Assembly: GCA_964564035.1 (NCBI GenBank)
Contig: CAZLZN010000002.1
Location: forward strand, 20,898 to 84,897
Source: an uncultured Gammaproteobacteria bacterium
Lineage (GTDB): Bacteria > Patescibacteriota > Microgenomatia > Levybacterales > UBA12049
DNA: 64,000 nucleotides
Direction of reading: 5' to 3'
Positions 271-20,029 of the stretch are shown here, one piece after another. Position 1 is the stretch's first letter; each line of letters opens with the position of its first letter. Below the pieces are notes generated by a model that had not been told where the DNA came from, did not search any database, and was given only the letters and a program-made list of their open reading frames with translations. The translations under genes were made by a program, and so were the position numbers.

Positions 271-1441
271 ATTTTTAAAACCGGTTATATTATTATTAGC
301 ATTCCTGCTTTCCGGCGGGATCTCTTATTTTTTCTTCTCAAGCCGTATATTGCCCGGCGCTGATTTGCTTACACAAACACCGGAACAGACAGGTAAACAG
401 ACTTCTGCAGGCAACGATTATGAGGCGCTGACTTTTGATCCTAACCATCCCGCGACAGAAGAATGTCCGCTGAATGGCGTAAAATACGGCAAAGATCAAA
501 AAGACTGGTGGACTAAACACAGGCCGCTTGGCGTTATGATCGAGAATCATCTCGAGTCGAGGCCTCAATCAGGCGTTTATTTCGCTGATGTTGTTTATGA
601 AGCAGTCGCCGAAGGCGGTATCACGAGATTCTTATCCGTATTCTATTGTCAGGATGCTGGCATAATTGGGCCGGTCCGTTCGGCTAGAACTTATTTTCTT
701 GACTTCATATCTGAATACGGAGAAAATCCGCTATATGCCCACGTAGGTGGAGCCAATACTCCGGGTCCGGCAAATGCTCTCGGCCAGATCGAGGATTATG
801 GATGGTCAGCCTACAATGACCTTAACCAGTTTTCTATTGGCTATCCCACTTTTTGGCGCGATCAAACCAGGCTCGGGCGCAATGTTGCTACCGAGCACAC
901 AATGTATTCGACGACTACCAAATTATGGGATTTCGCCAAAAAAAGAAAATTAACCAATGTCGACGAAGACGGTGCTTCATGGGATGTGGATTTTACCAGG
1001 TATTCCTTCAAAGAAGATAAGCCGGTACAAAAACCCGAAGCATCCGGAATAAATCTTGGCTTTTGGGACAATGCCTCCTACGTAGTCGATTGGGTCTATG
1101 ACTCCAAAACCAACTCCTATCTCAGGCAAAACGGCGGAGAAGATCATATGGACAGAAATACCAAAAAACAGCTGAATGCCAAAAACGTTGTGGTTTTATT
1201 TATGAAAGAAAGCAACGCCAACGACGGATACGAAAACAACGCACATCTTTTATATGGTACCAAAGGCACAGGCAAGGCTCTGGTATTTCAGGATGGCCGC
1301 GAAATAAACGCGACCTGGAAAAAAGCCGGCAGAACCGACAGGACAATTCTGACAGACAGTTCAGGCAATGATATCAGCTTTAATCGTGGTCAAATATGGT
1401 TCGAAATAGTCCCTTCGGATAGTGTAGTAAAAACAAATTAA
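260..1441 (+). CDS. DUF3048 domain-containing exported protein (YerB-like)
   Basis: Hydrophobic N-terminus (KPVILLLAFLLSGG). Core PLGVMIENHLESRPQSGVYFADVVYEAVAEGGITRF is typical of DUF3048. Confidence 0.7.
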   Translation: MQNKFLKPVILLLAFLLSGGISYFFFSSRILPGADLLTQTPEQTGKQTSAGNDYEALTFDPNHPATEECPLNGVKYGKDQKDWWTKHRPLGVMIENHLESRPQSGVYFADVVYEAVAEGGITRFLSVFYCQDAGIIGPVRSARTYFLDFISEYGENPLYAHVGGANTPGPANALGQIEDYGWSAYNDLNQFSIGYPTFWRDQTRLGRNVATEHTMYSTTTKLWDFAKKRKLTNVDEDGASWDVDFTRYSFKEDKPVQKPEASGINLGFWDNASYVVDWVYDSKTNSYLRQNGGEDHMDRNTKKQLNAKNVVVLFMKESNANDGYENNAHLLYGTKGTGKALVFQDGREINATWKKAGRTDRTILTDSSGNDISFNRGQIWFEIVPSDSVVKTN

Positions 1442-1479
1442 ACTTGCTATAATATTTTTTATTAATACTGCCTCCTAAA

Positions 1480-2055
1480 ATGCTATCAGATATTATTACA
1501 TCTAAAACAAGGATAAAACTGCTGAATGTTTTTTTGACCAAACCCGACCAAATGCTCCATGTTAGAGAGTGCGTGCGCAGAACAGAAGAAGAAATCAATG
1601 CAGTACGACGCGAATTGATCTTCCTTGAAAAAAAAGGAATTTTTCAGAAAGAACCAAGAGCTAACAGGATATATTATTCTCTTTCCAAAGAATATCCTTT
1701 TTACAATGACCTGCTGAGGATTGGTATAAAAACGATAGGACTGGGCGCTGAAATTCTAAAAAACCGTGTTAAGCTTGGCAAAATTAAATTTGCAATGTTT
1801 TCCGGTAAATTTGTAAGACGCATCAAAGAGTCCCCTGAAGACGTCGATCTGATTGTGGTCGGCACAATAGTTCTTCCGGAGCTTGGTATACTCGTCCGTA
1901 GCGAAGAAGCTCGTCTCGGATCTGAAATAAACTACACCGCTATGACAGAGGAAGAGTTCAAATTCCGAAAGCAAAGAAACGATCCTTTTTTAGTGAATAT
2001 TCTAAATGGAACACGTCTGATGCTGATCGGCGATGAGGAGGCTATGCTTTCATGA
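1480..2055 (+). CDS. winged-helix (ArsR-like) transcriptional regulator with C-terminal nucleotidyltransferase-like region
   Basis: N-terminal wHTH-like segment (RIKLLNVFLTKPDQMLHVRECVRRTEEEINAVRRELIFLEKKG). C-terminal DVDLIVVG segment. The stop overlaps the secD start. Confidence 0.5.
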   Translation: MLSDIITSKTRIKLLNVFLTKPDQMLHVRECVRRTEEEINAVRRELIFLEKKGIFQKEPRANRIYYSLSKEYPFYNDLLRIGIKTIGLGAEILKNRVKLGKIKFAMFSGKFVRRIKESPEDVDLIVVGTIVLPELGILVRSEEARLGSEINYTAMTEEEFKFRKQRNDPFLVNILNGTRLMLIGDEEAMLS

Positions 2056-3470
2056 AGCGTAAAATAAATTTTGCATTAATTTTTATTATCTTTCTAACTG
2101 CCGCGACGATTATAATAAATCTATCACAGCCATACTCTCTGAAATTCTCCACTCCCCGCCTTCCCTTCGTCGACCAAAGCTATAACGTAGACTGGAAATT
2201 TCCGGGTATTCATACTTACAATTTTTTCAAGACAGTCGGAATCACCAGGGATTTTTCCTTTCAAAAAGGCTTGGATCTGCAAGGTGGAACAAGTATAACT
2301 CTAAAAGCGGACATGAAGGATATTCCTGAAAGCCAGCGCGAGGATGCCCTCAACTCCGCCAAATCCGTTATCGAGCGCCGTATTAACTTCTTCGGAGTAT
2401 CTGAACCTGTCGTCCAGACTTCCCGTGCGGGCGGGGATTACAGGATTATTGCGGAGATTCCAGGAGTAACTGACGCGCAAACAGCCGTAAATCTGATCGG
2501 CAGAACCGCCAAGATGACGTTTTGGGAAAACGCCGCGTCCCAATCAGCCAAAATAGCCTCAGGCAGTGCGCTTCCGCTTGGCATAGACCAGCTTTTCCCA
2601 AATCCTGTCCAAACAGACCTGACGGGCGCGGACCTAAGCATGTCATCGGTAGTCTTCGATCCAAATACGGGCCAACCTCAAGTCCAACTAAAATTCACAC
2701 CAAATGGTTCCAAAAAATTCGGAGAGATAACCAAGCGCAATGTCGGAAATATCGTTGCGATCGTACTGGATAACCAAATTATTGAAGCGCCCCGCGTGAA
2801 TGAGCCGATTTTCGGCGGTGACGCAGTGATATCGGGGACCTTTACGACTGAAACAGCCAAAACATTACAAATACAGCTCAATGCCGGCGCGTTACCCGTT
2901 TCATTGTCGGTTTTGCAGCAGCAGGCGATAGGAGCGACGCTGGGACAGGAGTCCCTCGAAAAAAGTTTGATAGCGGGTATAATAGGATTTATCGTTATTG
3001 TTTTGTTTATGGTCATTTTATACGGCGTACCGGGTATAATAGCGAGCGTAGCGCTTGCGCTTTATACATTGATAGTACTGGCGCTTTTCAGGGCGATTCC
3101 TGTTACGCTGACGCTTGCGGGTATAGCCGGTCTGATTTTATCGATCGGAATCGCTGTCGACGCGAACATACTGATTTTCGAACGTATGAAAGAAGAACTC
3201 AGAAAAGGCAGGACCCGAGACATGGCAATTTCCCTGGGCTTTAGCAGAGCCTGGCTTTCCATACGCGATTCCAATATCTCAAGCCTTATAACCAGCGCTA
3301 TTTTATTCTATTTCGGATCGGGTGTTGTTCGCGGATTCGCTTTAACTCTTGCGATCGGAGTATTGGTTTCCATGTTCTCGGCAATTTTCGTCACCAAAAC
3401 ATTGCTCGAAGTGTTCTATTTAGATAAAAAACAAAAAACAAAAAATCAGGCATTAGCGATAAGTAAATAA
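2052..3470 (+). CDS. secD: protein translocase subunit SecD
   Basis: N-terminal TM, large exported domain and a C-terminal multi-TM block with GIAGLILSIGIAVDANILIFERMKEE. ATGA overlap with the upstream gene. GAGGAGG Shine-Dalgarno (SD). Confidence 0.9.
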   Translation: MKRKINFALIFIIFLTAATIIINLSQPYSLKFSTPRLPFVDQSYNVDWKFPGIHTYNFFKTVGITRDFSFQKGLDLQGGTSITLKADMKDIPESQREDALNSAKSVIERRINFFGVSEPVVQTSRAGGDYRIIAEIPGVTDAQTAVNLIGRTAKMTFWENAASQSAKIASGSALPLGIDQLFPNPVQTDLTGADLSMSSVVFDPNTGQPQVQLKFTPNGSKKFGEITKRNVGNIVAIVLDNQIIEAPRVNEPIFGGDAVISGTFTTETAKTLQIQLNAGALPVSLSVLQQQAIGATLGQESLEKSLIAGIIGFIVIVLFMVILYGVPGIIASVALALYTLIVLALFRAIPVTLTLAGIAGLILSIGIAVDANILIFERMKEELRKGRTRDMAISLGFSRAWLSIRDSNISSLITSAILFYFGSGVVRGFALTLAIGVLVSMFSAIFVTKTLLEVFYLDKKQKTKNQALAISK

Positions 3471-3471
3471 T

Positions 3472-4380
3472 ATGTTAAACATAATAGGCAAAAAAAATTG
3501 GTATTTTATTTTTTCACTTCTCATAATTATTCCCGGAGTAATTTCATTATTCCTTTGGGGGCTCAATCTCTCTATAGACTTTACCGGAGGCACACGAATG
3601 ATCCTGATTCACCCCGACTCGTCAAAAATCCAAACCCAAAACATCATCCGAAATGCGTTCGGAGAACAGAGCGTTGACATAGTGACCCTTCAGCCGTCGG
3701 AAAAAAGCATAGTCATACGCACGAGACAAATCAATGAAAAACAAAACACTGCACTTATCAGTGATATCAAAAAAGATCTGCCGGATATCAAACAGGAAAG
3801 TTTCGAAACCATCGGTCCGGCGGTTGGAGGCGAAACAACACAAAACGCTCTAAAAGCACTTGCTTTAGCTTCGCTCCTGATTGTTCTTTATATCGCATGG
3901 TCATTCCGCTCAGTGCCCAAGCCTACCAGCAGCTGGAAATTCGGTATATGCGCGATAATAACATTGCTCCACGATATTCTGGTTTTGGTTGGAATATTTT
4001 CTTTGCTTGGACATTTTTACGGCGTAGAAATCGATAGTCTTTTTATAACAGCCCTTTTGACCGTAATTGGATTCTCGGTTCATGATACTATAGTTGTGTT
4101 TGACCGGATCAGGGAAAACCTCAGAAAGTCGGTTGGTCTGCCATTTGAGCAGATAGTCAATGACTCCATTCTTCAAACAATCGTCAGGTCACTCAATACG
4201 TCGTTTACTACCATGCTGGTGCTGTTTACTTTACTCATTTTTGGCGGAGATTCTCTTCGATGGTTCATTGCCGCGCTCTTAATCGGTATCGGAGTAGGGA
4301 CATACTCGTCCATCTTCAATGCCGCTCCGCTTCTCGTGTTATGGCATCAGTTCGATCGGAGACGAAAGAATATTAAATAA
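3472..4380 (+). CDS. secF: protein translocase subunit SecF
   Basis: Starts 1 nt after secD. TVIGFSVHDTIVVFDRIRENL is a SecF-type signature. Multi-TM protein. Confidence 0.9.
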   Translation: MLNIIGKKNWYFIFSLLIIIPGVISLFLWGLNLSIDFTGGTRMILIHPDSSKIQTQNIIRNAFGEQSVDIVTLQPSEKSIVIRTRQINEKQNTALISDIKKDLPDIKQESFETIGPAVGGETTQNALKALALASLLIVLYIAWSFRSVPKPTSSWKFGICAIITLLHDILVLVGIFSLLGHFYGVEIDSLFITALLTVIGFSVHDTIVVFDRIRENLRKSVGLPFEQIVNDSILQTIVRSLNTSFTTMLVLFTLLIFGGDSLRWFIAALLIGIGVGTYSSIFNAAPLLVLWHQFDRRRKNIK

Positions 4381-4383
4381 CCA

Positions 4384-4758
4384 ATGCCTGCCGAACCCCA
4401 AACAAAAATACTCAATACCGCGCTTGGAGATTTGCTCCGAAGCAACGCTCAAGCCAGAAATTTAATTATGCAGTCAATGCGGATTTCTCCGGAAGAATTA
4501 AATAGCATGATCGATCGCGCAGGAGGCAGTCAAATGATGGGTATGACAATTGGCGAACTTTTCAAAAATGGACTATTCCAAAAAGCACAATCTTTGACAC
4601 AAAACCCCGATACTATGCTTCACGAATTTAAAGATGAACATATTGCGCTCATGGCGGACTCTTTAAAAAACCCGGGACTCTCCTCACGGGAACAAGCCGG
4701 GAACGCACAAGTGAAAAGCCAAAATATTTTTCAAAAAATCAAAAATTTATTTAAATAA
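4384..4758 (+). CDS. hypothetical protein
   Basis: 124-aa ORF tightly packed between secF and the deaminase gene. No motif recognised. Confidence 0.4.
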   Translation: MPAEPQTKILNTALGDLLRSNAQARNLIMQSMRISPEELNSMIDRAGGSQMMGMTIGELFKNGLFQKAQSLTQNPDTMLHEFKDEHIALMADSLKNPGLSSREQAGNAQVKSQNIFQKIKNLFK

Positions 4759-4759
4759 A

Positions 4760-5224
4760 ATGAACGATTATATGCAGATCGCACTTTCCGAGGCGGCCGC
4801 CGGTTTTAAAAATAACGAAGGAGGTCCATTCGGAGCCGTCATCGTCAAAAATAATCAAATAATCGCGAAGTCACATAATGAAGTTTTGCAAACAAACGAC
4901 CCGACAGCTCATGCCGAGGTAACAGCAATTCGCAAGGCATGCGCGTCGCTCAAAACGTATTCCCTCGAAAACTGTGAAATTTATACGACCTGTGAGCCAT
5001 GCCCGATGTGCCTGGGAGCTATAATGTGGGCCGGTATTTCCAAAATTTACTACGGAGCAGACAGGAAAGCCGCGGCCAATCTGGGCTTTGATGATGATTA
5101 TTTATATCAGGTAATAAATGGCAATACCAAGGCCGACAAGCTGGAAATGACGAGAATTGACGAAGATGATTGTTTAAAACTGATGCATGAATGGAGTCAA
5201 AAAGAAGATAAAGTTATTTATTAG
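4760..5224 (+). CDS. guaD: guanine deaminase (CDA-fold, GuaD type)
   Basis: GGPFGAVIVK, DPTAHAEVTAIRKAC, CEPCPMCLGAIMWA and GFDDDYLY match my memory of B. subtilis GuaD more closely than TadA. Confidence 0.7.
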   Translation: MNDYMQIALSEAAAGFKNNEGGPFGAVIVKNNQIIAKSHNEVLQTNDPTAHAEVTAIRKACASLKTYSLENCEIYTTCEPCPMCLGAIMWAGISKIYYGADRKAAANLGFDDDYLYQVINGNTKADKLEMTRIDEDDCLKLMHEWSQKEDKVIY

Positions 5225-5681
5225 AACCAGCACCCTCAAGTTCTTCTTTAACAATCTTCCCCACTAGATTTCCATCGGCTTTGCCTTTGAGCCTCGGCAT
5301 CAGCGCTCCCATAATTTTCCCCATATCCGACATGCCTGATGCTTGCGTCAGACCGATTACTTCCTTGACCAAAATTCTAATATCGCTCTCCCCCATTTGT
5401 TCCGGCAGATACTTCTTTAATATCTCAAGCTCTGCTGTTTCTTTATCGACCAGATCGGATCTCCCGGCATTTTGGAATTGCTCTATAGAATCCCTGTGCT
5501 GTTTTACTTCTTTTTGAATAACGGCCAGTACATCTTCATCGCTGGCTTCATAGCCCGCGCCCCCCTTGTTCGTTTCAAAATACCCGATTCCGGAAATAAC
5601 CATTCGAAGCACGGAAGTCCTGAGCGTATCCTTAGCAAGCATCGCCTGCTTCAACTCATCCCTCAACTGTTGTTTTAACAT
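5214..5681 (-). CDS. GatB/YqeY domain-containing protein
   Basis: 155 aa. The LRDELKQAMLAKD...RTSVLRMV N-terminus and ELEILKKYLP are characteristic of YqeY-like proteins. Confidence 0.8.
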   Translation of the reverse strand: MLKQQLRDELKQAMLAKDTLRTSVLRMVISGIGYFETNKGGAGYEASDEDVLAVIQKEVKQHRDSIEQFQNAGRSDLVDKETAELEILKKYLPEQMGESDIRILVKEVIGLTQASGMSDMGKIMGALMPRLKGKADGNLVGKIVKEELEGAGSNK

Positions 5682-5700
5682 AATAAAATTATAACATAAA

Positions 5701-6486
5701 TTATGTTGTATTTATTAAACCTCTGTTTAATAGTTTTTTAAAGCTTCTTTTTAGATACATCAAGGCTAAAATAATATATAGAACATTTAGCAACAGCGAT
5801 AAATATAAGTAATTATTATTTATAGCCCCTTGCTCCAATACCTGTCGCATCCCTTCAAAAACATAGCTGGCAGGTACTATAGAAGCGATTAGCTGTGCCC
5901 ATTCGGGAAGAGATGAGACAGGATAATAAATCGCGCAAAAAGGGGAAATCAGAGCGACCATTGCCCAGGCTAACGTTTGTATTCTGCTCCCGTATCGAAA
6001 TATTATGCCCGTTACAAAAAAACCCACTGCCCATCCGTTTAATATCAATAAGCCCATAAATGGAATAAGGTAAATTCCTAGTGAAAATATTTGTATTTTA
6101 TATAATAAAAACGCAATAGAGGCTGTGAATAATAGGCTGATAAAAGCTTTAATGCCTCCGAGCACGAGAAGTGAAATGACCCACTCGCTGAATTTTATTG
6201 GAGATACAAAAGTATTTATTAAATTTTTATCCCACATTTCTTCGAGCAAATTTACTGTCAGCTCGTATTGTGCTCGCCAAATTATATACCAAAATATTAT
6301 CCCGCTAACTATCAGCATTACGACTGGGATTTGATCGTCTATTAATGATTTAAGATAAGCACTTGTCAGTCCCCATACCACAAGGTCAATAGTAGGCCAA
6401 TAAAAAGCGTCACTTAACCTATCAAAGCTATGCTTTTGTAAGTATACATATCTTAAAAATACCCCATAAATTTTATGTATTTTCAT
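5701..6486 (-). CDS. ABC-2 type transporter permease
   Basis: 261 aa with about 6 hydrophobic helices. The start overlaps the stop of the upstream ATPase gene by 4 nt. Confidence 0.7.
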   Translation of the reverse strand: MKIHKIYGVFLRYVYLQKHSFDRLSDAFYWPTIDLVVWGLTSAYLKSLIDDQIPVVMLIVSGIIFWYIIWRAQYELTVNLLEEMWDKNLINTFVSPIKFSEWVISLLVLGGIKAFISLLFTASIAFLLYKIQIFSLGIYLIPFMGLLILNGWAVGFFVTGIIFRYGSRIQTLAWAMVALISPFCAIYYPVSSLPEWAQLIASIVPASYVFEGMRQVLEQGAINNNYLYLSLLLNVLYIILALMYLKRSFKKLLNRGLINTT

Positions 6487-7403
6487 ACTTTATCGCTCTT
6501 TGCTGCTTGCAAGAAATAGTCTTCCAGCGTGGGTTTATCAATGCTTATCTCATCATATTTTATATCTCTTGCGGAAATTTCATTTAAAAATTCCGACAAA
6601 TGTTTTTCCGGAATATCTAACGAAATATTTTTTCCAGTTGCTTTAAGCCCAAAATTTTTCTCCTTCGCGAGTTGCGTCAAAATTTCCAAATTGTTAGAAA
6701 TATGCATATTTAGATGACTTATTTCAATTTGTTTCACAAGATTTTCAGGTTTATCATCATCGATGATTTCCCCTTTGTTTATGAAAATAACACGATCACA
6801 TACTTCTTCTATTTCACTCATGTTATGAGAAGTCCAAATTATTGAAATATTATTTTGCATCTTTCTCTTCAAGATTAAGTCACGCAGATATTTCGCGATT
6901 TCAGGATCCATAGAAGCCGTTGGTTCATCTAAAAGCAAAACCCTGGGATCATTAATGAAGGCTTTCGCTAAATTTACGCGGGTGTTTTGTCCCGCGGATA
7001 GTTTGGATATACTTTTATTTTCGAATTCACCTAACTTGAACAATTCAATGATTTCATTAATCTTTTGCTTCCTGTTTTTAATATCATACAAATATGAAAT
7101 AAAAGTTAAGTTCTCCCGGACAGTTAACTTCCATGGTAAATTAATATATGTTGAAGAAAAATTTACCTTTTCCATAATTTCTTCGCGATCAGTTTTAATA
7201 CTTTTTTCGAAATAATTAATTTCTCCATTAGTAGGCGTAAGTATTCCAAGTAGCATTTGAATTGTCGTTGTCTTGCCCGCCCCGTTAGGGCCTAATAACC
7301 CTACTATTTCTCCCTCTTCCATATTAAAGGAAATATTTTTGACAACATCGAAATTTCCAAATCTTTTACTTAAATTTTTGACTTTCAATATAACTTTATT
7401 CAT
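6483..7403 (-). CDS. ABC transporter ATP-binding protein
   Basis: Walker A GPNGAGKTT, signature LSAGQ, Walker B LLLDEPT and H-loop TSHNM. Confidence 0.88.
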   Translation of the reverse strand: MNKVILKVKNLSKRFGNFDVVKNISFNMEEGEIVGLLGPNGAGKTTTIQMLLGILTPTNGEINYFEKSIKTDREEIMEKVNFSSTYINLPWKLTVRENLTFISYLYDIKNRKQKINEIIELFKLGEFENKSISKLSAGQNTRVNLAKAFINDPRVLLLDEPTASMDPEIAKYLRDLILKRKMQNNISIIWTSHNMSEIEEVCDRVIFINKGEIIDDDKPENLVKQIEISHLNMHISNNLEILTQLAKEKNFGLKATGKNISLDIPEKHLSEFLNEISARDIKYDEISIDKPTLEDYFLQAAKSDKV

Positions 7404-8040
7404 ATATAATTTATTTAATTTTTAAAATACTTTTACTTAACCTTTTCTATAATAACAGAAAGTAATCCTTATACTCAAAACAAATATATTCTTTATGTGA
7501 CTAGAGCTTCCGGTATTATTTAAATTATTCACACGAATTGGATGACCCAAAGTCTTTGTACACATATCCAACTTTAAAAATAATTTCAGTATTGTGATTT
7601 AAGCCACGTTAATAAATATAAGTTGCACCTTATTTTAGCTATTTGGAGTACTCGAAATATAGGTTTTTCTTTTCCGCCTGCAGTTGAGCTAACTGCTTTC
7701 TATATTTTGCAATGCTTCTATCAAGTGCGGTTTTAGTCAAAAATCAAACGTATTGGTTATCTCAGCCCACTGAGTTACTAAACGCCTATTTCTATTACCT
7801 GGAGCATTCCTTGTAAATTTAGATTATACCCGTCAGCTATAAGTATTCCACTCCTCTAACTTCCCCAAATATTGAGGTGAATACTTTCCCGGTTCGATGG
7901 TGTGCAGGAACGTCAATTTATTGCTGTTCATATGCTGTTATGTTGCAAATCTTCTTATATATAAAATTACATATCCCAATTTAATATTCCCTATTTATAA
8001 AACCAATCAACATGCGAGGTTAGTTAGTGCAGCTTTACAC

Positions 8041-8066
8041 TGTATAGTTGTCTAGACAACTATACA
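8041..8066. repeat. perfect 26-bp palindrome TGTATAGTTGTCTAGACAACTATACA, 2 nt past the stop of the TrpR-family gene
   Basis: Read directly; the reverse complement is identical. The right part (8047..8067) is a 19/21 direct repeat of 8488..8508. Confidence 0.9.
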
Positions 8067-8068
8067 AC

Positions 8069-8479
8069 TTACCTTCCTACATTTTTTCTCCTAAAGCCCG
8101 AATACACTTTTTTCTTGAACACGAGTTTTGATCCTCCGGTATTTATAAATTTGTTCTTTCCATACTCATTTTCTACCTTTATTCGTCTTGCTTCTATCAT
8201 GTCAAACGCATCCGGATACTTGTCTAAGCTCTTTATTACTGACAAAATAGTATTTTTCCCTACGTTTAATTTTCTGGCTATTTCGTCATAACCAACATTA
8301 TTTTTTATAAGCATCGCAATAATTATGCGTCTGCCGATCTTCATTTTCTCATCAAAAGTCAATAAACTGTTAATTATTTGCTCAACTTGTTCGCCATTTT
8401 TAGCAGCCAGAAATGCATCTCTCAATTTATTAAGCGCGTCATAAACATCGTCCTGATCTAGAAAATTATATCTTTTCAT
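8069..8479 (-). CDS. TrpR-family (TrpR / YerC-YecD-like) DNA-binding protein
   Basis: LLTFDEKMKIGRRIIIAMLIKNNVGYDEIARKLNVGKNTILSVIKSL aligns with E. coli TrpR [49 protein letters not shown]. It carries an extra basic C-terminal tail of about 40 aa. Confidence 0.7.
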   Translation of the reverse strand: MKRYNFLDQDDVYDALNKLRDAFLAAKNGEQVEQIINSLLTFDEKMKIGRRIIIAMLIKNNVGYDEIARKLNVGKNTILSVIKSLDKYPDAFDMIEARRIKVENEYGKNKFINTGGSKLVFKKKVYSGFRRKNVGR

Positions 8480-8487
8480 ATTATTCC

Positions 8488-8508
8488 GTTGTCTAGACTA
8501 CTGTACAA
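8488..8508. promoter_or_regulatory. GTTGTCTAGACTACTGTACAA motif 9 nt upstream of the TrpR-family start codon (candidate auto-operator)
   Basis: 19/21 identical to 8047..8067 in the same orientation. Contains the 8-bp palindrome GTCTAGAC. Confidence 0.45.
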
Positions 8509-8530
8509 ATCATACAAAAAATCACACGAG

Positions 8531-9904
8531 TTAACCTAGTTCCTTTATTCTGACCGTCAAATATTCCTTGGTATTCTTACTAAGATCCTCATCGACTTCC
8601 TCAAAAAGTTTTTGCAGTATTTCCCCTATTTTTTTACCAGGTTTTATATTTAACTCGCGCATAATATCATTTCCGTCGATTGCCAGATCATTTACCGAGA
8701 AAGGCGCGGGCGAAAGCTGTTTCTCGACCCTTTCTTTAAAAAGCTTCAGCCTCCAGCTCTCGGCAGTCTGTGTACCGCCGCCAAGCCGGTCGCCGATTCT
8801 GAGATCCATCATATCTTTTACATTATCAACACCAATTCTCCTGATAAACCGCCTCACCGCTGAATCCGTGATTTTTTCATCAACCGTGAACATATGCCAT
8901 CTTATTAGCGTAGATATTTTCTCGCGGTCTTTTTTTGAAAACCTCAGCCTGTCTGTGATTTCCCTTGCCATTCTCGCACCCGCTATTTCATGGTTATAAA
9001 ATATTACAAAACCATTTTCATCGGCCGCCGCGACCCTGGGTTTGCCTATGTCATGAATCAATGTAGCAAATCTTACAATAGGATCGATCGACGGACAGAA
9101 TTTAAGTGAAAGCACGTTATGTGTAAACACATCATCTTTGTGATGCCTGCCGGGTCTGGCTTGCGACACTCCGATCCCCTCCAGAAGCTCCGGGATTATG
9201 TATTGCAGCAGATTTGTATTTTTAAGCAGCATTATTCCTTCATACGCAAAATTACTTTCAAGTATCTTGATCAGTTCGGTGTTTATACGCTCTTTAGAAA
9301 TCTTCTCAAGTAATTGAGCGTCGTTGGTAACAGCATTCATTGTGTTTTCGTCAATTGAAAAAGCCAGCTGTGCGGCAAATCTGATGGCTCTCATAAGTCG
9401 TAATGCGTCCTCCTTAAAACGCATGTTTGGGTCTCCGACAGTCCTTATAATCCTGCGTTCAATATCCGCTTCTCCGCCAAAAGGATCAATTAGTTTATAA
9501 TCAGATTGGTTTGCATCCAGCTCAAGCGCGATGGCATTTATTGTAAAATCACGCCTGGACAAATCCTCTTCAAGACTTTTACCCCAAGTGACTTTTTCCG
9601 GATGTCTATTATCCGAATATGAAGACTCGGTCCTGAATGTCGTAATCTCTATTACTCCGGCATGTTCGGATTCCGCGATATCTCTGACCGGGATTCCAAC
9701 CGTGCCGAAGCTGTTGTCGTAAAATCCGTCCGGATAAAGCTTAAGTATCTCCTCGGGGACAGCGCTGGTCGTCAGATCCCAATCCTGAAGTTCCCGTCCG
9801 CTTAGCATATCGCGGACACAACCGCCAACGAGGTATATTTCGTGTCCTGCATCTCTGAATTTACGGTATATTTCTTTTATGTGCTGTGGAATTTTATGAG
9901 TCAT
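8531..9904 (-). CDS. cca: CCA tRNA nucleotidyltransferase with HD domain
   Basis: Head domain YLVGGCVRD...DWDLTT, RRDFTINA, and HD motif LIHDIGKP. Start placed at MTHKIPQH (ATG 9904); the 18 upstream codons are a hydrophobic, low-complexity extension. Confidence 0.85.
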   Translation of the reverse strand: MTHKIPQHIKEIYRKFRDAGHEIYLVGGCVRDMLSGRELQDWDLTTSAVPEEILKLYPDGFYDNSFGTVGIPVRDIAESEHAGVIEITTFRTESSYSDNRHPEKVTWGKSLEEDLSRRDFTINAIALELDANQSDYKLIDPFGGEADIERRIIRTVGDPNMRFKEDALRLMRAIRFAAQLAFSIDENTMNAVTNDAQLLEKISKERINTELIKILESNFAYEGIMLLKNTNLLQYIIPELLEGIGVSQARPGRHHKDDVFTHNVLSLKFCPSIDPIVRFATLIHDIGKPRVAAADENGFVIFYNHEIAGARMAREITDRLRFSKKDREKISTLIRWHMFTVDEKITDSAVRRFIRRIGVDNVKDMMDLRIGDRLGGGTQTAESWRLKLFKERVEKQLSPAPFSVNDLAIDGNDIMRELNIKPGKKIGEILQKLFEEVDEDLSKNTKEYLTVRIKELG

Positions 9905-9957
9905 ACTGCTATAGTATATCAAAAGAACTGAGCTTATTACATAAATAAATATATCCA

Positions 9958-11646
9958 ATGAAACGCTGGAAATTATTAAACCAACAAAAAGTTACAAATA
10001 AAAAAAAGGTAAATGAAAATATCATCAAACTGCTTCTCGCAAATCGCGGGATTTCTTCAAAAAAAGATATCGACGATTATTTAAATCCAAATCTGGAAAA
10101 TATATCGTTTGATAGTGTCGGTATCGGCGATACTCGCATAAAAAAATTTCTGGAACGTATTATTAGCGCAATCACCAAAAAAGAACAGATCATTGTGTAC
10201 GGAGATTACGACGTTGACGGGATTACCGGTACGGCGATTTTATGGGAGGTGCTTAACCGCGCGGGCGCCAAAGTCCTGCCGTTTATTCCGGACAGAGTTG
10301 ATGAAGGGTATGGTCTTTCAATAGCCGGCATAAACAAGCTAATATCCAAAACCGACAACATCAAGCTCATTATTACAGTGGATAATGGTATAGTAGCAAA
10401 CGAAGCCATAAATTACGCCAATTCCAAAGGTATCGAAGTAATAATAACTGATCACCATACGGTAGGCAAAACACTTCCCGATGCGGGCAATATTATTCAT
10501 ACAACAACACTTTGCGGGGCAGGAATTGCGTATCTTCTAAGCAAAGCTATCAAAAACAAAATTTTACACAAAACAGACTTGAACAGCGATGACCATTTGG
10601 AACTGGCAGCTCTCGGTACTGTTGCTGACATGGTGCCGCTTCTTGGTCCAAACAGAGCTATCGTGAAATACGGTCTCGAAAAATTAGCTTTTACGACGCG
10701 TCCAGGTTTAATAGAATTATATAAAAACGCCGGTTGTGAAAAAAATGTTTTTAGCTGTTACGAAGTCGGATTTATTATCGCTCCCCGACTCAATGCTTCG
10801 GGCAGGATAGAGAATGCAATGGATAGCTTGCGCCTGCTATGCACCAAAGACAGATTAAGAGCTAAAAAACTCGCCGACAAACTTGAAGAAACGAACAAAG
10901 AGCGCCAGTTTCTTATGAAAGAAGCAGCCGAAGATTCAATACTTAGGATAAAAAATCAGGAAACAAATATCAAAAAAATCTTAATTGTGTCGCACGAAAA
11001 TTACAATCAGGGAATAATCGGACTGGTAGCAGGTAAATTAGTAGAAGAATTTTATCGTCCCTCGATTGTCATTTCCATAGGTGAAACCCATAGCAAAGCA
11101 TCAGTCAGATCGGTAGAAGGATTCAACATAATTGAATTCTTAAGATCCAAATCGGAGTATTTCGTCAACGTCGGCGGCCACCCGATGGCAGCCGGCTTTA
11201 CTATAGAGACATCAAAATTAACAGAATTTCAGACGGCGCTGGAACTAGCGGCCGAATCAACTTTGGATCCTGAGACATTGAAGCGTCAGTTGAAAATTGA
11301 CCTTGAGATTCCTTTTGAACTTATAACACAGGAGTTATATTCGGATCTGCAAAAAATGGCGCCGTTCGGTATGAAAAATCCCGAACCGGTTTTTTGCTCA
11401 AGCGGCCTGAAAATAATGGATCTGAGAATTTTGGGGCAGGAGGGCAAACACCTCAAGCTCAAATTAAAAAGCGGCAATTCGGAATCAGTGGGGTTCGGTA
11501 TAGACGCGATCGGTTTCGGTATGGGTCAAAGAGCCGGAGAGCTTGCCGTCGGGGATTCCATCAGCGCGGCGTACACGATCGATCAAAACACCTGGAACGG
11601 CAGCACAAATCTACAGCTTAAATTGAAGGACATTCGACTGAATTAA
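9958..11646 (+). CDS. recJ: single-stranded-DNA-specific exonuclease RecJ
   Basis: DHH-family motifs (YGDYDVDGITG, ITVDNG, ITDHH) and DHHA1 GGHPMAAG. Confidence 0.9.
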   Translation: MKRWKLLNQQKVTNKKKVNENIIKLLLANRGISSKKDIDDYLNPNLENISFDSVGIGDTRIKKFLERIISAITKKEQIIVYGDYDVDGITGTAILWEVLNRAGAKVLPFIPDRVDEGYGLSIAGINKLISKTDNIKLIITVDNGIVANEAINYANSKGIEVIITDHHTVGKTLPDAGNIIHTTTLCGAGIAYLLSKAIKNKILHKTDLNSDDHLELAALGTVADMVPLLGPNRAIVKYGLEKLAFTTRPGLIELYKNAGCEKNVFSCYEVGFIIAPRLNASGRIENAMDSLRLLCTKDRLRAKKLADKLEETNKERQFLMKEAAEDSILRIKNQETNIKKILIVSHENYNQGIIGLVAGKLVEEFYRPSIVISIGETHSKASVRSVEGFNIIEFLRSKSEYFVNVGGHPMAAGFTIETSKLTEFQTALELAAESTLDPETLKRQLKIDLEIPFELITQELYSDLQKMAPFGMKNPEPVFCSSGLKIMDLRILGQEGKHLKLKLKSGNSESVGFGIDAIGFGMGQRAGELAVGDSISAAYTIDQNTWNGSTNLQLKLKDIRLN

Positions 11647-11654
11647 GAATGAGA

Positions 11655-12362
11655 TTATTGAGAAGCTCTTTCGACTAACTCTTCAATCGATCCCACATTA
11701 GGGATAGGTTTGGGCATTGCGTCATTTTTTGTAAATCTTAACATCTCTCGCTCAGCCTCAGACGCTCTGAATAACACCTCGTCTTTAAAAGTTTTTTCAT
11801 TATATAGTGACTCTCCGGTATTCAAATGCTGGTCTGGATTTGACCTATTTAGTAATTCCACATATTGCGAAAATGTAAAAACTCGAACAGGTATTTTTGG
11901 ATAACGCGGTTTAGCATGACCACTTACATCAACTTCTAATACCCTGGATGAGTTCCTGATTCTGTGATGCCCGTCAACTACTATTAATTTCGCTGATCCG
12001 TTAACAAGAGGTTCAAAGCACACTAAAGCAGGATTGGAATACAAATAGTCAGGATCTTTTTCGAATTCTGCGATTACTTTGAGGGTACTTCCGCGACGAT
12101 TGTTTTCTCTCGCGAGTTGCGTCCCATACAAATTTCTTCTATCGACCAGGATTTTTGGTCCTATCCCCTCTGCCTCCGATAACTTAACTGTATCTTCTGT
12201 AGGATAAACTAATTCACCTTGTCTTAATCTTCTCTCTATTCGGTCCTGAATATAATCAAAAACATCGATATGTATTTCGGGACGTCCATTTGGAATGTAA
12301 TGAATCAAATGTGGATTTTCGCCCTTTTTATGATAATACTCTGGCCTTCGCTCAATATTCAT
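11655..12362 (-). CDS. ParB/sulfiredoxin-fold domain protein (DGHHR motif), function unknown
   Basis: KLIVVDGHHRIRN at aa 125-137 (codons for DGHHR at 11961..11975) is the ParB/Srx core signature. The rest is unrecognised. The gene has its own promoter. Confidence 0.6.
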   Translation of the reverse strand: MNIERRPEYYHKKGENPHLIHYIPNGRPEIHIDVFDYIQDRIERRLRQGELVYPTEDTVKLSEAEGIGPKILVDRRNLYGTQLARENNRRGSTLKVIAEFEKDPDYLYSNPALVCFEPLVNGSAKLIVVDGHHRIRNSSRVLEVDVSGHAKPRYPKIPVRVFTFSQYVELLNRSNPDQHLNTGESLYNEKTFKDEVLFRASEAEREMLRFTKNDAMPKPIPNVGSIEELVERASQ

Positions 12363-12388
12363 ATATATAAAAAAGATAATTGTCCTAT

Positions 12389-12417
12389 AGTATACTCATT
12401 ATTACTCAGCTTGTCAA
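12389..12417 (-). promoter_or_regulatory. sigma70-type promoter TTGACA-17-TATACT for the ParB/Srx-fold gene
   Basis: On the minus strand: TTGACA (12417..12412), a 17-nt spacer, TATACT (12394..12389). It sits about 27 nt upstream of ATG 12362. Confidence 0.5.
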
Positions 12418-12528
12418 GGGTCTGATTTCCTGCTGCGCTCACCTTGCGAAGTTTTATTAACGTGCTGACTCACCTCTAATTTAGTCCATTATATATTTTA
12501 TATATAAACAGATGACTTAGATTGCGAA

Positions 12529-13875
12529 TTATACACCCAATACCGTTCTGTGTTTTCTGCGCACCAGCTCTATAGACACATTTTTCATTCTTTCCCTATC
12601 AAATTTATAAAAATCCTCCGGAAACAAAAAATCCATAACTCCGGATTTAAAAATTCGTTCTATCTCATATTCATCATGTGCCACCCCGTCTTTGAGTTTA
12701 TAATTAAGATATTCTTCAGTTGTTAAAAGAAGTATCTCCGGCCTTGCCCCATGAGCTCTGGCATGAAATTTTACCATTCTGATATCCGACGATCCCCCTA
12801 TGGAATGGTTTTCTCTTCCTCCCTCCCCATAGGTATCCTCAGGATCCTCAAATGTCACTGCAGATCCTGTTTCGATTGCTTTATCATGCAAGTGTCTTAT
12901 AAATCTGTTAATGTCTGCCTTGTTTTCCAAAACAGCCATAAGCCCAAGTTCATCTTCTACGGCAGATGCAGGATTATCTTTACCTTTTCTAAGTAGTTTT
13001 ATTATTTTACTAGTCATTGATTTTTCCCGCGTGTCCTGAAGTACCGGTATCGATTTTCCGTCGACAACTATTCTTCTTCTTTCAACTGTCTCAATGCGCT
13101 GATCGGGTTTCGGCGAATAATTATCTGCATCATTTTTGGATAATATCCTGGCATCAATACAACTCATATCGCTCAGATTATGCGTACTCAGTATGCTGTC
13201 TTCTGTAGTAGGCTGATCCCCGCTCATTGCCCATACATTATTGCTTAAAAAATCTTTGAAAGTACTATACTGCTTTTCCGTATCGACTTCTCTTCGGCGG
13301 CTGTCGATAGTCCCCGCGAGGCGCATCAATAACAACTTGCGCTTTGCCTCAAATCTCCTTTGGGGATTTAAATTTTTATCTAGAAGCATTAGTCCGAGTC
13401 TGAATGGATTATTCTCCTGCTCAACTTCTTCTGACTGCGAAAGATCAACGAAACGTGTAGTTAAGTTTTTTTTAATTACTTTTATTACATCGTTTGCCAT
13501 TTCGCCATATGTCTCTATTTGCCGCTCAAGCATCTCGGGAGATCCTTCCAAACCGAACATTCTTCCATAAAGAGCTATGGCCTTGTCGCTTTTTTCTTTA
13601 TGTGTACTCGTCTTAGATAACAAAGTGCCCGCCTCGCTCCAGTCCTTTAAGCCCATTAGATGCTTAAACTCCTGCATGGCCAGTCTTAGCTTTAACTTTT
13701 CGGTTCTTGTAGGTTTTTGCTTATCTTTTAAATACCTGCGCCCCTCTAGTGAAAAATTATTAATTTCCGGCGTAACAGCGCCCCAGCCGCTTTCTCTATA
13801 GGCATAAAAATTGCCCCCCACTTTATCTTCATTTTTGCTCACTTGGGCTCCTTTGGCTTGTGCGGATTCACTCAT
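12529..13875 (-). CDS. divergent RelA/SpoT-homologue (RSH synthetase-like) nucleotidyltransferase with an unknown 280-aa N-terminal region
   Basis: aa 283-405 carry R-E-K-S-M-T-S-K-I-I-K (RxKxxxSxxxK), DELGLM (DxxGxR-like), KFH...PEILLLT (H...EIQIRT-like) and GVAHDEYE (GVAAHWxYK-like). Motifs recalled from memory, not a profile search. Confidence 0.5.
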   Translation of the reverse strand: MSESAQAKGAQVSKNEDKVGGNFYAYRESGWGAVTPEINNFSLEGRRYLKDKQKPTRTEKLKLRLAMQEFKHLMGLKDWSEAGTLLSKTSTHKEKSDKAIALYGRMFGLEGSPEMLERQIETYGEMANDVIKVIKKNLTTRFVDLSQSEEVEQENNPFRLGLMLLDKNLNPQRRFEAKRKLLLMRLAGTIDSRRREVDTEKQYSTFKDFLSNNVWAMSGDQPTTEDSILSTHNLSDMSCIDARILSKNDADNYSPKPDQRIETVERRRIVVDGKSIPVLQDTREKSMTSKIIKLLRKGKDNPASAVEDELGLMAVLENKADINRFIRHLHDKAIETGSAVTFEDPEDTYGEGGRENHSIGGSSDIRMVKFHARAHGARPEILLLTTEEYLNYKLKDGVAHDEYEIERIFKSGVMDFLFPEDFYKFDRERMKNVSIELVRRKHRTVLGV

Positions 13876-13929
13876 ATTTATATTATGCTACATCTTCTAT
13901 TTTTTTGCTATAATACATTTATATTTATT

Positions 13930-15324
13930 ATGTCCAAAACTGATCCAAGAATTCTATCTTCAAACACGCCTGATTTGATCGGACAGGAAATTGTTGCCCA
14001 AGGCTCCGTTCATGCACGGCGCGATCACGGCAAGCTTATATTCATCGATATCCGCGACCGGACAGGTCTTTTACAGGTTGTTTTCATACCGAGTTCATCA
14101 CCAGACGCTCACAAGCTCGCCGGCGAACTCCGCCCCGAAGATATTGTAGAAATAAAAGGCAAAGTCAACAAAAGACCCGACCGCCTGATCAACCCCAGGA
14201 TAGTCAGTGGTACAGTCGAGCTTGAAGCGCTTGAGCTAAAAATTCTAAGCAAATCAGACACTCTCCCTCTCGATCTTGGCGCCGAAGATCTCAATGTCGA
14301 ACTTCCTACGCTTCTCGACCACAGAGCGCTCACCCTGCGCCATGAAAGCGTGAAGTCAATTTTCAAAGTCCAAAGTGCCCTGCTCGAAGGCTTCCGCAAG
14401 TCAGCCCGCGAGCTCGATTGTACCGAGATTGTAGTCCCGACAGTAGCCGCGAGTTCAACCGAAGGCGGAGCCGAAGTGTTTACTGTTGACTATTACGGAC
14501 ACAAAGCTTTTCTTACTCAGAGCCCCCAGCTTTACAAACAAATAATGGTACCTGTATTTGAGCGCGTCTTTACAATTGCCCATGCATATCGCGCTGAGCC
14601 GTCGGTCACAACCCGGCATCTCGCGGAGACTACTCAAATGGATTGCGAAATAGGATTCGTGGACTTTGAAGGTCTCATGGATATTTATGAACACATCGCT
14701 CATTTTATGGTCAAACAAGTTGAAAAAACTTGCCCGGATGAACTCCAAAAATACAATCCAAATCCGGTACTGCTTGGCAAAATTCCGAGGTTGACGCTCC
14801 GGGAAGCTCAGGAAATTATATATTCCAAATTCGGCCGCGACGCGAGAGGAGAAAAAGATCTCGGCCCGGCGGATGAAGTAGATATTTGCAAATGGGCGCG
14901 GGAAGAGCACAAAAGTGACTTTGTAACGATTACTCACTTCCCCACCAGGAAACGGGCTTTTTATACTATGCCCGATCCTGAAGACCCCGAGTATAGCTTG
15001 AGCTTTGATCTTTTGTTTCGAGGCGTTGAAATACTAAGCGGAAGCCAGCGCATCAATGACTATTCTCAGTTAGTCTCGGCAATCAAAGACCGGGGCATGG
15101 AACCGGACGATTTCGGTCTTTATCTTCAGGCATTCAAATACGGCATGCCGCCAGAGGGAGGATTTTCATTCGGTCTCGAAAGGCTTACTATGAAAATGCT
15201 TGGACTAGAAAATGTCCGCCAGGCATCCCTTTTCCCGCGGGACATGGAGCGTGTCGATGAAAGATTTTCCAAAAAATCAGAATCCAATGAAAAAAAAGCC
15301 CAAATACTTCAAAAAAAGCAATAA
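13930..15324 (+). CDS. aspS: aspartate--tRNA ligase, archaeal/eukaryal type (type 2)
   Basis: OB-fold N-terminus (GSVHARRDHGKLIFIDIRDRTG) and class II motifs (AHAYRAEPS, GGFSFGLERL). Start moved to ATG 13930. TGcTATAAT extended -10 at 13906..13914. Confidence 0.9.
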   Translation: MSKTDPRILSSNTPDLIGQEIVAQGSVHARRDHGKLIFIDIRDRTGLLQVVFIPSSSPDAHKLAGELRPEDIVEIKGKVNKRPDRLINPRIVSGTVELEALELKILSKSDTLPLDLGAEDLNVELPTLLDHRALTLRHESVKSIFKVQSALLEGFRKSARELDCTEIVVPTVAASSTEGGAEVFTVDYYGHKAFLTQSPQLYKQIMVPVFERVFTIAHAYRAEPSVTTRHLAETTQMDCEIGFVDFEGLMDIYEHIAHFMVKQVEKTCPDELQKYNPNPVLLGKIPRLTLREAQEIIYSKFGRDARGEKDLGPADEVDICKWAREEHKSDFVTITHFPTRKRAFYTMPDPEDPEYSLSFDLLFRGVEILSGSQRINDYSQLVSAIKDRGMEPDDFGLYLQAFKYGMPPEGGFSFGLERLTMKMLGLENVRQASLFPRDMERVDERFSKKSESNEKKAQILQKKQ

Positions 15325-16315
15325 AACCGAAACAGTAGAAAAAGTTGTAAAAACTAAAAAAGCATACAGCTTTGATTATTTTGGATTTATATACACATCC
15401 CTCAAAATTGTTCCGGTTATTTTATTCGTGTTATTTTTGGCGCTTTATTACCAAAATAACCGCATAAACCAAAATATTCAATCCCTTGAACTAAAAGATG
15501 CCGGTTACAGCGTCAGACTGACTGACTACCCTTTTCTGACCGATTTTATACCCCCCGATATCACAGCCAAATCCGCGATTATCCTTGAAGCAGATTCAAA
15601 TGCTGTTTTATACTCTAAAAATCCGGAGCTTAGATTATCGATCGCGTCGACTGCCAAAATAATGACGGCTTTAGTTGGTCAGGAATATTATTCGCCAAAT
15701 TCGGTACTGAAAATTTATACTCCTCAGGTGGAGGGTTCGAATCTGGGTTTTAGGCAGAATGAGGAGTACATATATTCCGATCTCCTGAAAGCTATGTTTC
15801 TCCCGTCATCCAATGAAGCCGCGTATGCAATTGCCGACAATTATCCTGGCGGTATGGAAAATTTTGTTAAACGCATGAATGAAAAAGCATTAGAGCTCGG
15901 GCTTACCAACACCCACTTCAAAGACCCGGCCGGACTGGATGATGATGAGAATTATTCCAATGTATATGAACTCGCCCGCGTTTCATCTCATCTGACCAAA
16001 TACCCTGATCTAAAAAAAATAGTTTCATTGACTCAAGCCGATATAGCGGATATTACAGGTAAGCACAATATGAGATTTAACAATCTGAACAAATTGCTTG
16101 GGGTGGATGGTGTAAACGGAATCAAAACAGGTACGACCTACGGCGCCGGTGAAGTCTTGGTTACTTCGAAAAATATTGAAGGGAAGACATTTATAGTTGT
16201 TGTTATGAAAAGCGTATCCCGCTTTGATGATACCAGACAGCTCTTATCGCTTTTATCAACAAAACTGGATTACATTAGGCCGGGATATTTAACTCAAGCC
16301 CTAAACTCCCGATAA
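15257..16315 (+). CDS. D-alanyl-D-alanine carboxypeptidase (peptidase S11, PBP5-like)
   Basis: SxxK (STAK), SxN (SSNEA) and KTG (KTGTT). N-terminal TM. Start chosen at ATG 15257 because GGAG lies 7 nt upstream. Overlaps the aspS tail by 68 nt. Confidence 0.75.
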   Translation: MKDFPKNQNPMKKKPKYFKKSNKTETVEKVVKTKKAYSFDYFGFIYTSLKIVPVILFVLFLALYYQNNRINQNIQSLELKDAGYSVRLTDYPFLTDFIPPDITAKSAIILEADSNAVLYSKNPELRLSIASTAKIMTALVGQEYYSPNSVLKIYTPQVEGSNLGFRQNEEYIYSDLLKAMFLPSSNEAAYAIADNYPGGMENFVKRMNEKALELGLTNTHFKDPAGLDDDENYSNVYELARVSSHLTKYPDLKKIVSLTQADIADITGKHNMRFNNLNKLLGVDGVNGIKTGTTYGAGEVLVTSKNIEGKTFIVVVMKSVSRFDDTRQLLSLLSTKLDYIRPGYLTQALNSR

Positions 16316-16316
16316 G

Positions 16317-17483: not shown

Positions 17484-17578
17484 ATATTGAGTATAAATAA
17501 AATATAAAGTACAATGCAAGAGAGGCGCCGTAAGGTATCTCTCGCAGGGAGATATGGCTTGAATCTTAAAAGATAAAT

Positions 17579-18982: not shown

Positions 18983-18984
18983 CT

Positions 18985-19934: not shown

Positions 19935-20029
19935 CTTTTTGAACTGATTTTTAGTAAAATTGTTCAGTACTAAAACTGGTTATATATTGACTTAAGTTCG
20001 GTTTTAAAAATTATACTAGTGCCCAGGGC

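Follow-up and report, generated by a model that had tools for sequence, protein, structure and literature searches.

Paired palindromes bracketing a TrpR-superfamily gene in Microgenomates genomes as putative cognate operators

A TrpR-like gene between two copies of one palindrome

Using a 64,000-nucleotide (nt) stretch of the genome of an uncultured, groundwater-type Levybacterales bacterium (GenBank assembly GCA_964564035.1, contig CAZLZN010000002.1, positions 20,898 to 84,897), which we refer to throughout as the window, we examined a small gene of the TrpR superfamily (8069-8479, minus strand) that encodes a helix-turn-helix (HTH) protein of 136 amino acids (aa), and that is the sole open reading frame (ORF) between two copies of a 21-nt direct repeat. 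The downstream copy, GTTGTCTAGACAACTATACAA, is located at 8047-8067, with a single base (8068) separating it from the stop codon (tta at 8069-8071 on the plus strand), and the upstream copy, GTTGTCTAGACTACTGTACAA, is located at 8488-8508, with eight bases between it and the ATG start codon (8477-8479), i.e., it begins at the ninth base. The two copies have the same orientation and are identical at 19 of 21 positions.

Each copy is part of a CTAG-centred palindrome that we class as a putative operator. The downstream palindrome, TGTATAGTTGTCTAGACAACTATACA (8041-8066; CTAG at 8052-8055), is perfect over 26 bp and has its centre 15.5 nt past the last base of the stop codon; the upstream one (8482-8508; CTAG at 8493-8496), which reads TTGTACAGTAGTCTAGACAACGGAATA in the orientation of the gene, is imperfect and has its centre 15.5 nt before the first base of the ATG. 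No other perfect palindrome in the window is as long as the downstream one, with the runner-up measuring 16 bp, and CTAG is the most depleted palindromic tetranucleotide of the window (41 occurrences, where a Markov model predicts 71 and base composition predicts 225). A search of the window for the 21-mer, allowing up to three mismatches, identified only the sites at 8047-8067 and 8488-8508, and the same search found no match in 100 dinucleotide-preserving shuffles, demonstrating that the repeat is not due to chance.

These findings confirmed, base by base, what the original prediction had described from the letters of the window, i.e., the coordinates, the 19/21 identity, the like orientation, the single enclosed coding sequence and the perfect 26-bp palindrome at the downstream copy. 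The missing U-tract that it reported is also correct, in that no T-run follows the palindrome at 8041-8066 in the direction of transcription, where the next bases are GTGTAAAGCTGC. Its description of the downstream copy as an expanded palindrome is true of the window genome; in a relative whose protein is 88% identical (locus L007), both copies have GGAACA on that flank. The wider search for the repeat that it proposed gave two copies only in the 64 kb, and in a combined ~330 kb of flanking DNA from related loci, together with the window, locus-specific 16-mer cores occur at the bracketing positions only, with two loci (L022 and L033) as exceptions.

Site pairs and their putative cognate proteins across the family

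We scanned one genome per species for homologs of the 136-aa protein, which identified 44 loci in Levybacteria, Woesebacteria, Daviesbacteria and other Microgenomates metagenome-assembled genomes, with the encoded proteins 44-62% identical. Four of these loci were left out, two since they are cut by a contig end (L040, L051) and two with an early stop codon from the start (L041, L048), and the set we analyzed therefore consisted of 42 loci, i.e., the window, L007 and 40 loci from the scan. Matching palindromes, centred on CTAG or CTGT, are present just before the ATG and just after the stop codon in 35 of these 42 loci; five have the upstream site alone (L019, L029, L046, L047 and L049), and the remaining two are the rearranged variants L022 and L033. 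An automatic search for the best palindrome centre proved too noisy in AT-rich DNA, and it was replaced by 18-mer matching against a null of mismatched loci, together with curated 16-mer cores. By this measure, the best match between upstream and downstream regions was at least 15 of 18 in 31 of 42 loci, compared with 13% of mismatched locus pairs. We found no prior description of this bracket in the literature on this family in the Candidate Phyla Radiation (CPR).

The position of both sites is narrowly constrained. In the 34 loci that were curated, the centre of the upstream site lies a median of 17.5 nt before the ATG (interquartile range [IQR] 15.5-20.5), the centre of the downstream site lies a median of 22.5 nt after the stop codon (IQR 17.5-26.5), and the two centres are separated by a median of 451.5 bp (range 441-488). 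Since the downstream centre is never closer than 15.5 nt to the stop codon, the downstream site begins right after the coding sequence. This placement does not depend on what follows: the downstream neighbour differs among loci, and includes genes for an ATP-binding cassette (ABC) ATPase, MetK, YqeY, GatC and Frr as well as convergent UppS or glycosyltransferase genes, and the site still lies within 15-43 nt of the stop codon. In ~24 loci the gene that follows is co-directional, and in 9-10 it is convergent, with the site retained in the latter (L013, L016, L021, L024, L026, L027, L035, L038 and L050).

The two rearranged loci keep recognizable versions of the same arrangement. In L022, the upstream site is present as two half-sites ~80 bp apart (4814-4920), and two identical full sites (5438-5460 and 6036-6058) bracket the next gene, which encodes a 179-aa protein with no assigned family, giving three sites in a row. 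In L033, a convergent 177-aa ORF is located between the stop codon of the regulator and the second site (5411-6120), and this second site, ~80 nt before the gene encoding YqeY, forms a perfect palindrome of 24 bp in which two CTAG boxes are spaced 8 bp from each other.

The sites at different loci are unlike between lineages, yet the two copies at any one locus agree, and the class of site tracks the motif in the recognition helix of the encoded protein. For example, proteins with the helix motif VGKNTIxSV are encoded between sites of the form GTTGwCTAGACAAC, and those with VGKQTxxQVQK between sites of the form CCGTAGACTAGTACACGG; the motif VGRSTLQFVSRR is paired with ACCGTCGACTAGTCGACGGT, VGRTTIxLVG with TACGATGTTCTAGAACATCGTA and VGLTTVxLVARK with CGTGGACTGTATCACGG. 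This also applies within single genomes, as paralogs present in the same assembly have unlike sites, with neither site found at the locus of the other (L016/L029, L023/L037, L022/L035 and L030/L047). Distinct sites at co-resident paralogs argue against a common third factor that binds all of them, and are not explained by shared descent, which could produce part of the match between helix and site.

The encoded protein belongs to the TrpR superfamily, but falls below the cut-offs of both of its characterized branches. It matches the Pfam family Trp_repressor (PF01371) over residues 16-95 with 43.7 bits (cut-off 27), and scores 27.6 bits against the NCBIfam equivalog model for TrpR (TIGR01321; cut-off 67.25) and 30.2 bits against that for YerC/YecD, i.e., HisR (TIGR02531; cut-off 42.2), where a short CPR homolog (L054) scores 82.3. 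Its closest solved relatives are the HisR-type structures 3kor, 3frw and 3g1c (E = 4e-6 to 2e-4, residues 15-109), and an AlphaFold2 model (mean predicted local distance difference test score 92.6) has the TrpR/HisR fold, with the same three structures as the top Foldseek matches (TM-score to target 0.73-0.80), followed by E. coli TrpR (0.61-0.65). Residues 96-136 (window 8069-8190, minus strand) form a conserved, basic C-terminal extension, GGSKLVFKKKVYSGFRRKNVGR, in which the model places a long helix (89-109) and a beta-hairpin (111-126); the basic tail GGSKLVFKKKVYTGFKRKDVKR is kept across the family, and the extension is covered by no solved TrpR or HisR structure among the PDB matches. 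In the predicted structure, this tail may stretch the DNA footprint to 26-28 bp, or may mediate higher-order assembly. We identified 58 homologs, nearly all of 136 aa, and the family is small, with 51 clusters at 50% identity (E ≤ 1e-10) among 1.84 billion representatives. The best explanation of these sequence comparisons is that the protein is a member of a TrpR-superfamily branch restricted to CPR/Microgenomates, and that by the NCBIfam cut-offs it is neither TrpR nor YerC/HisR.

Comparison with known members of the superfamily is consistent with this placement. TrpR of Escherichia coli, a dimeric repressor, autoregulates its own gene at the single trpR operator, in which CTAG is the key element, and autoregulated TrpR-family repressors with palindromic CTAG operators are already known. 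The proteins we describe share with it a small all-helical HTH fold, a CTAG palindrome and a putative operator over the gene's own promoter, and some of their sites (L023, L033 and L015) resemble the E. coli trp operator in having two CTAG boxes 8 bp apart. They differ from it in the 40-aa conserved basic extension and the low TrpR score, in a site of 26-28 bp with a single central CTAG, in the second conserved site after the stop codon and in the absence of trp genes near the locus. A TrpR motif, TGTAcTnGTnnACnAgTACA, has been quoted in an earlier survey (PMC9413887), which also identifies YerC as HisR, the histidine repressor of Firmicutes, with the consensus cacTTTA-N6-TAAAgtg, links to his or histidine-transport genes, lineage-specific palindromic operators and autoregulatory sites in about half of genomes, and which reports 20-bp palindromic operators and frequent autoregulation for the TrpR/HisR family. 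The 136-aa family is like HisR in that HisR-type proteins are its nearest relatives in sequence and structure, and in its lineage-specific palindromic sites; it is unlike HisR in its length (136 aa vs <100 aa), in lacking the HisR box, with GTTGTCTAGACAAC-type sites instead, in having no his genes among the called neighbours, and in the 3′ site, as that paper gives no 3′ operator. An operon encoding an archaeal-type tRNA-Trp and TrpRS is reported to begin with a "trp repressor gene" in some Beckwithbacteria (PMC5370408).

Neighbourhood, promoter and proposed mechanism

In the window, the TrpR-like gene is preceded by a co-directional gene for the CCA-adding enzyme (8531-9958, minus strand), and beyond this by a divergent recJ gene (9958-11646). 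On its other side, a 665-bp stretch without an intact gene (7404-8068) separates it from genes encoding an ABC ATPase (6483-7403, minus strand) and an ABC-2 permease (5701-6486, minus strand), followed by YqeY. The original prediction described these 665 bp as decayed, and correctly so: most of the gap is occupied by a pseudogene (approximately 7642-7931, minus strand) whose 97-aa counterpart is an intact ORF in L007 (715-1008); tblastn aligns the two at E = 6e-28 and reveals three in-frame stops and one frameshift in the window copy. The pseudogene lies outside the site-gene-site unit and its decay is unrelated to the repeats. The 97-aa protein matched no Pfam or NCBIfam family. Its ORF is no regular companion of the regulator: apart from L007, we found it beside this gene in L050 only, there on the opposite strand. 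Scanning the window for Rfam families and tRNAs gave no match in the neighbourhood of the locus, and hence no known RNA element within the 665-bp gap.

The left arm of the upstream palindrome contains a hexamer, TACAGT (8500-8505, minus strand), that resembles a -10 box and that probably acts as one. In four relatives, the corresponding hexamer follows a consensus -35 box at a distance of 16-18 nt, i.e., TTGACT-17-TACAGT in L007, TTGACA-16-TACAGT in L042, and TTGACA-17/18-TACGAT in L029 and L039. With a protein bound at the upstream site, the -10 box, the transcription start and the ribosome-binding site (RBS) would all be covered, and this overlap implies autorepression. A sigma-70 call over the upstream site (TGTACA-16-AATAAT) was rejected as the promoter of the gene, since its -10 box abuts the ATG and the transcript would start within the conserved N-terminus. 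Neither promoter-like nor terminator-like calls (hairpin plus T-run) were enriched over shuffles in positions 1-20000, with 22 terminator-like sites found vs 18.1 ± 4.7 in shuffles.

Taken together, the family-wide bracket, the agreement of sites within each locus, the tracking of the recognition helix and the divergence between paralogs lead us to consider it likely that the repeats are cognate operators of the encoded repressor, with the upstream copy mediating autorepression and the downstream copy acting as a conserved auxiliary operator at the 3′ boundary. A dimer of the 136-aa protein would recognize the CTAG-centred palindrome, and an occupied upstream copy would shut off transcription of the gene itself, and would also block read-through from the co-directional gene upstream. 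The downstream copy could bind cooperatively with the upstream site via a ~440-bp DNA loop around the gene, for which the position right after the stop codon would be the nearest non-coding DNA at a loop-forming distance, or it could act as a roadblock to RNA polymerase crossing the gene boundary in either direction; these two roles are not exclusive of each other.

Both roles have precedents. DNA looping is established for lambda CI (OL-OR, around cI), LacI (O1-O2, 401 bp), GalR (OE-OI) and AraC (O2-I1), and the bracket resembles these in having two copies of one site, hundreds of bp apart, that flank or span a promoter; the lambda repressor gene is also located between its operators. The bracket is unlike them in that, in almost all members, the second site follows one 411-bp gene at its 3′ end, and in that there is neither phasing of the spacing nor evidence for a tetramer. 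The auto-operator reading in the original prediction, which suggested that the two sites could loop, is supported by the comparative evidence for the operators and not for the loop. Roadblock repression is known from PurR, which autoregulates via operators downstream of the purR promoter, and from LacI and CodY/CcpA, and the sites known to act in this way are located inside the regulated unit or at its 5′ part; we know of no example in which they are a conserved feature of a regulator's own 3′ boundary. As in those systems, a repressor bound within or at the end of the unit would be predicted to halt an elongating polymerase, whatever the orientation of the neighbour, and the indifference of the site to neighbour orientation, together with the few canonical terminators, fits such a role. 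A further reading, less radical than the relocatable element considered below, in which the pair serves as a protein-dependent boundary element or terminator in genomes poor in intrinsic terminators, we regard as somewhat unlikely.

Several observations weigh against the operator reading, or against parts of it. The operator role of the sites is based, across all members, on sequence and predicted structure, and the match of helix to site could partly come from shared descent instead of co-evolution. In the window itself, no recognizable -35 box is present upstream of TACAGT, and the upstream copy has one core mismatch. The 441-488 bp spacing shows no helical phasing (Rayleigh n*R^2 ~0.5), so it gives no positive support for looping, and looping at ~450 bp is not refuted by it, and the five loci with an upstream site only indicate that the 3′ copy is dispensable. 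In addition, a metagenome scan with CGTTGWCTAGACAACG, from which all counts are among the matches listed, identified ~10 loci with the 136-aa gene, three sites beside short YerC-like genes and many chance matches in high-GC DNA, but also about a dozen solo sites in low-GC contigs that have the extended arms of the family and no such gene nearby, so the palindromes are not exclusive to the bracket. These solo sites occur in divergent (L127, L106), co-directional (L104, L113, L117, L095) and convergent (L075, L129) intergenic regions. Finally, one CGTTGwCTAGwCAACG palindrome adjoins each of two short, true YerC/HisR-type genes of 89-97 aa (L054:210-640 and L076:560-1000) on CPR-like contigs that carry different boxes of their own, i.e., the HisR box ACTTTA-N6-TAAAGT, in their promoters; the sequences hint at cross-regulation of these genes by the 136-aa family.

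Duplication of a promoter-operator could also produce such a bracket, with the next co-directional gene or operon under the control of the same repressor, and the bracket then marking two adjacent regulated units. This is in keeping with the co-directional next gene in ~24 loci, with L007, where both copies lie within a 29-nt direct repeat (TTTGTAyAGTTGTCTAGACAACGGAACA) that includes the Shine-Dalgarno-like GGAACA, with L036 and L027, where an ATG lies beyond the downstream copy at a spacing similar to that of the upstream copy, and with a solo site in L054 located ~19 nt before the start of another gene. However, the site is retained beside convergent genes, and it hugs the stop codon even where the intergenic region extends for 160-420 nt (L009, L011, L017 and L018). 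In L007 and the window, the next ORF starts ~122-125 nt past the centre of the downstream site (in the window, this is the former start of the pseudogene), and L007 has its own TATAAT nearer to it. The downstream copy in the window has no -35 box before it, and a promoter-like site with an upstream TG (TTGAGT-18-TATTAT; 7449-7478, minus strand) is present ~45 nt before the start of the ABC ATPase gene, so the ABC transporter operon seems to have a promoter of its own, far from the downstream operator. These features make control of a downstream promoter unlikely in the window genome, and for the family as a whole we consider a duplicated promoter-operator improbable.

We judge it less probable still that the palindromes act as RNA hairpins, i.e., as terminators, 3′-end stabilizers or RNase III processing sites flanking the mRNA. 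The downstream copy, directly after the stop codon, does fold, forming a stem of 12 bp closed by a CUAG loop (-12.8 kcal/mol, z = -2.4), and some solo sites are found between convergent genes, but the upstream copy forms no hairpin (-4.8 kcal/mol, z = +0.7), a T-run is absent in the window and in most relatives, and our terminator scan did not call the downstream copy. Of the arm mismatches at 72 sites, 78 could be accommodated as G:U pairs in the sense strand and 59 in the antisense strand, whereas 190 fit neither, and the third pair from the centre is symmetric in just 44% of sites; mismatches that are mostly not wobble-compatible and that show no strand bias leave no RNA-helix signature. 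An RNA hairpin would also require neither a shared sequence at the 5′ and 3′ ends nor a difference between co-resident paralogs.

Solo sites and an empty locus

The original prediction offered two further readings, that the repeats are the ends of a gene cassette or that they bind some other factor, and our analysis gave little support to the first and disfavoured the second. If the repeats were ends of a small mobile or excisable cassette, i.e., recombination or attachment sites or a target duplication, the gene would move or be lost by recombination, as might be expected from direct repeats that enclose exactly one gene, from the presence of the unit beside unrelated neighbours in distant lineages and from the second bracketed gene in L022. 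An empty locus is known too: L113 has the RecJ, CCA-adding enzyme and YqeY synteny without a TrpR-like gene, and retains one palindrome, TTGTATCGTTGACTAGACAACGAAAC, in a 118-bp spacer (5155-5272). The original prediction had proposed to look for presence or absence of the cassette in relatives, and L113 does provide a syntenic locus without the gene and with one site left. This single site is the product expected of deletion between the repeats, and on its left side the flank is similar to that of an upstream copy (15/20 to L012), a comparison that is suggestive; precise excision cannot be claimed, as the right flank is uninformative.

Several observations speak against a cassette. In Levybacteria, the order RecJ, CCA-adding enzyme, TrpR-like gene, (insert) and YqeY is conserved at 60-88% protein identity, as would be expected if the gene had been inherited vertically and not moved recently. 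The window contains one copy of the unit, as does each related locus, and where copies coexist in a genome they are paralogs that have diverged from each other and have unlike sites. No recombinase or transposase is encoded in the unit or beside it, and the protein has no catalytic signature: only HTH families matched, and it contains no histidine and hence no HUH motif. The palindromes co-vary with the encoded protein, and not with an external enzyme. Integron attC sites measure 57-141 bp and are found in cassette arrays with an intI integrase nearby; the sites described here measure 26-28 bp, bracket a single gene (except in L022) and have no integrase among the called neighbours. We therefore regard a cassette as very improbable; the sites are most likely the protein's own binding sites, and the best explanation of the conserved arrangement is that the site-gene-site unit is an old, self-contained module inherited with its gene.

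We give equally little weight to the idea that the palindrome, as a generic dispersed repeat or a site bound by another genome-wide factor, came to lie beside this gene by coincidence. For a REP-like dispersed extragenic palindrome, many copies per genome at unrelated intergenic positions would be expected; the DNA covered here was the 64 kb, the ~330 kb of flanks and the metagenome contigs. The dozen or so solo palindromes would suit this idea, as would several Ga0210059 contigs that break exactly at the palindrome. On the other side are the occupation of both gene ends in 35 of 42 loci, the different sites of paralogs in one genome, and the restriction of the repeat to two copies in 64 kb, with none beyond the bracket in the ~330 kb of flanks from relatives. 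Arms extended at four or more of six positions are found in 5 of 36 high-GC matches vs 22 of 44 low-GC matches among those listed, and the 16-mer matches in high-GC DNA, most of which lack extended arms, look like chance. An autonomous relocatable element, in which the HTH protein or guided host recombination excises the 441-bp gene and reinserts it at solo palindromes, would account for the travel of the bracket into unrelated neighbourhoods and for solo sites like that of L113; we regard it as very improbable. An insertion sequence or an IS200/IS605-like minimal element would have an encoded transposase (DDE or HUH/Y1) and several identical copies, whereas we found HTH matches only, no histidine, a single copy in the window and conserved synteny in relatives.

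To our knowledge, almost nothing is known experimentally about transcriptional regulation in CPR bacteria. What appears to be new here, judged from the sequences, is a CPR-restricted branch with a conserved C-terminal extension, a family-wide pair of sites that brackets the gene with one copy abutting the stop codon, and natural paralog/site pairs whose specificities are apparently orthogonal. The locus is a compact, sequence-defined system of a 136-aa regulator and two putative cognate sites, with dozens of natural variants readable from genomes. These variants, co-resident paralogs among them, form a ready-made series for studying the specificity of protein-DNA recognition, from which small orthogonal repressor/operator pairs might be drawn. 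A looping or roadblock role of the 3′ site, if borne out, would reveal how genomes that are very small and poor in terminators shield a regulator gene from its neighbours; mere autoregulation by the protein would make it a tidy but ordinary addition to a known family.

Some further occurrences of the palindrome were recorded in the metagenome scan. Six Ga0210059 contigs (L074, L082, L085, L086, L107 and L121) begin or end exactly at a palindrome, L107 at both ends, and the first 64 bp of another contig (L071:1-64) are a perfect palindrome centred on the site; in both cases, the assembly probably broke or folded back at the palindrome, or an element is repeated locally. At L060:5506, L095:1941 and L129:7680, a solo palindrome is followed by a common flank, AAGATATTAAATGAAATTAATyCAG, and the one in L129 is located between convergent genes. 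In L069 (1-400), which has moderate GC content and no TrpR-like gene, a 37-bp tandem repeat array contains GTTGTCTAGACAAC in most of its units, and this array is probably unrelated to the operator family.

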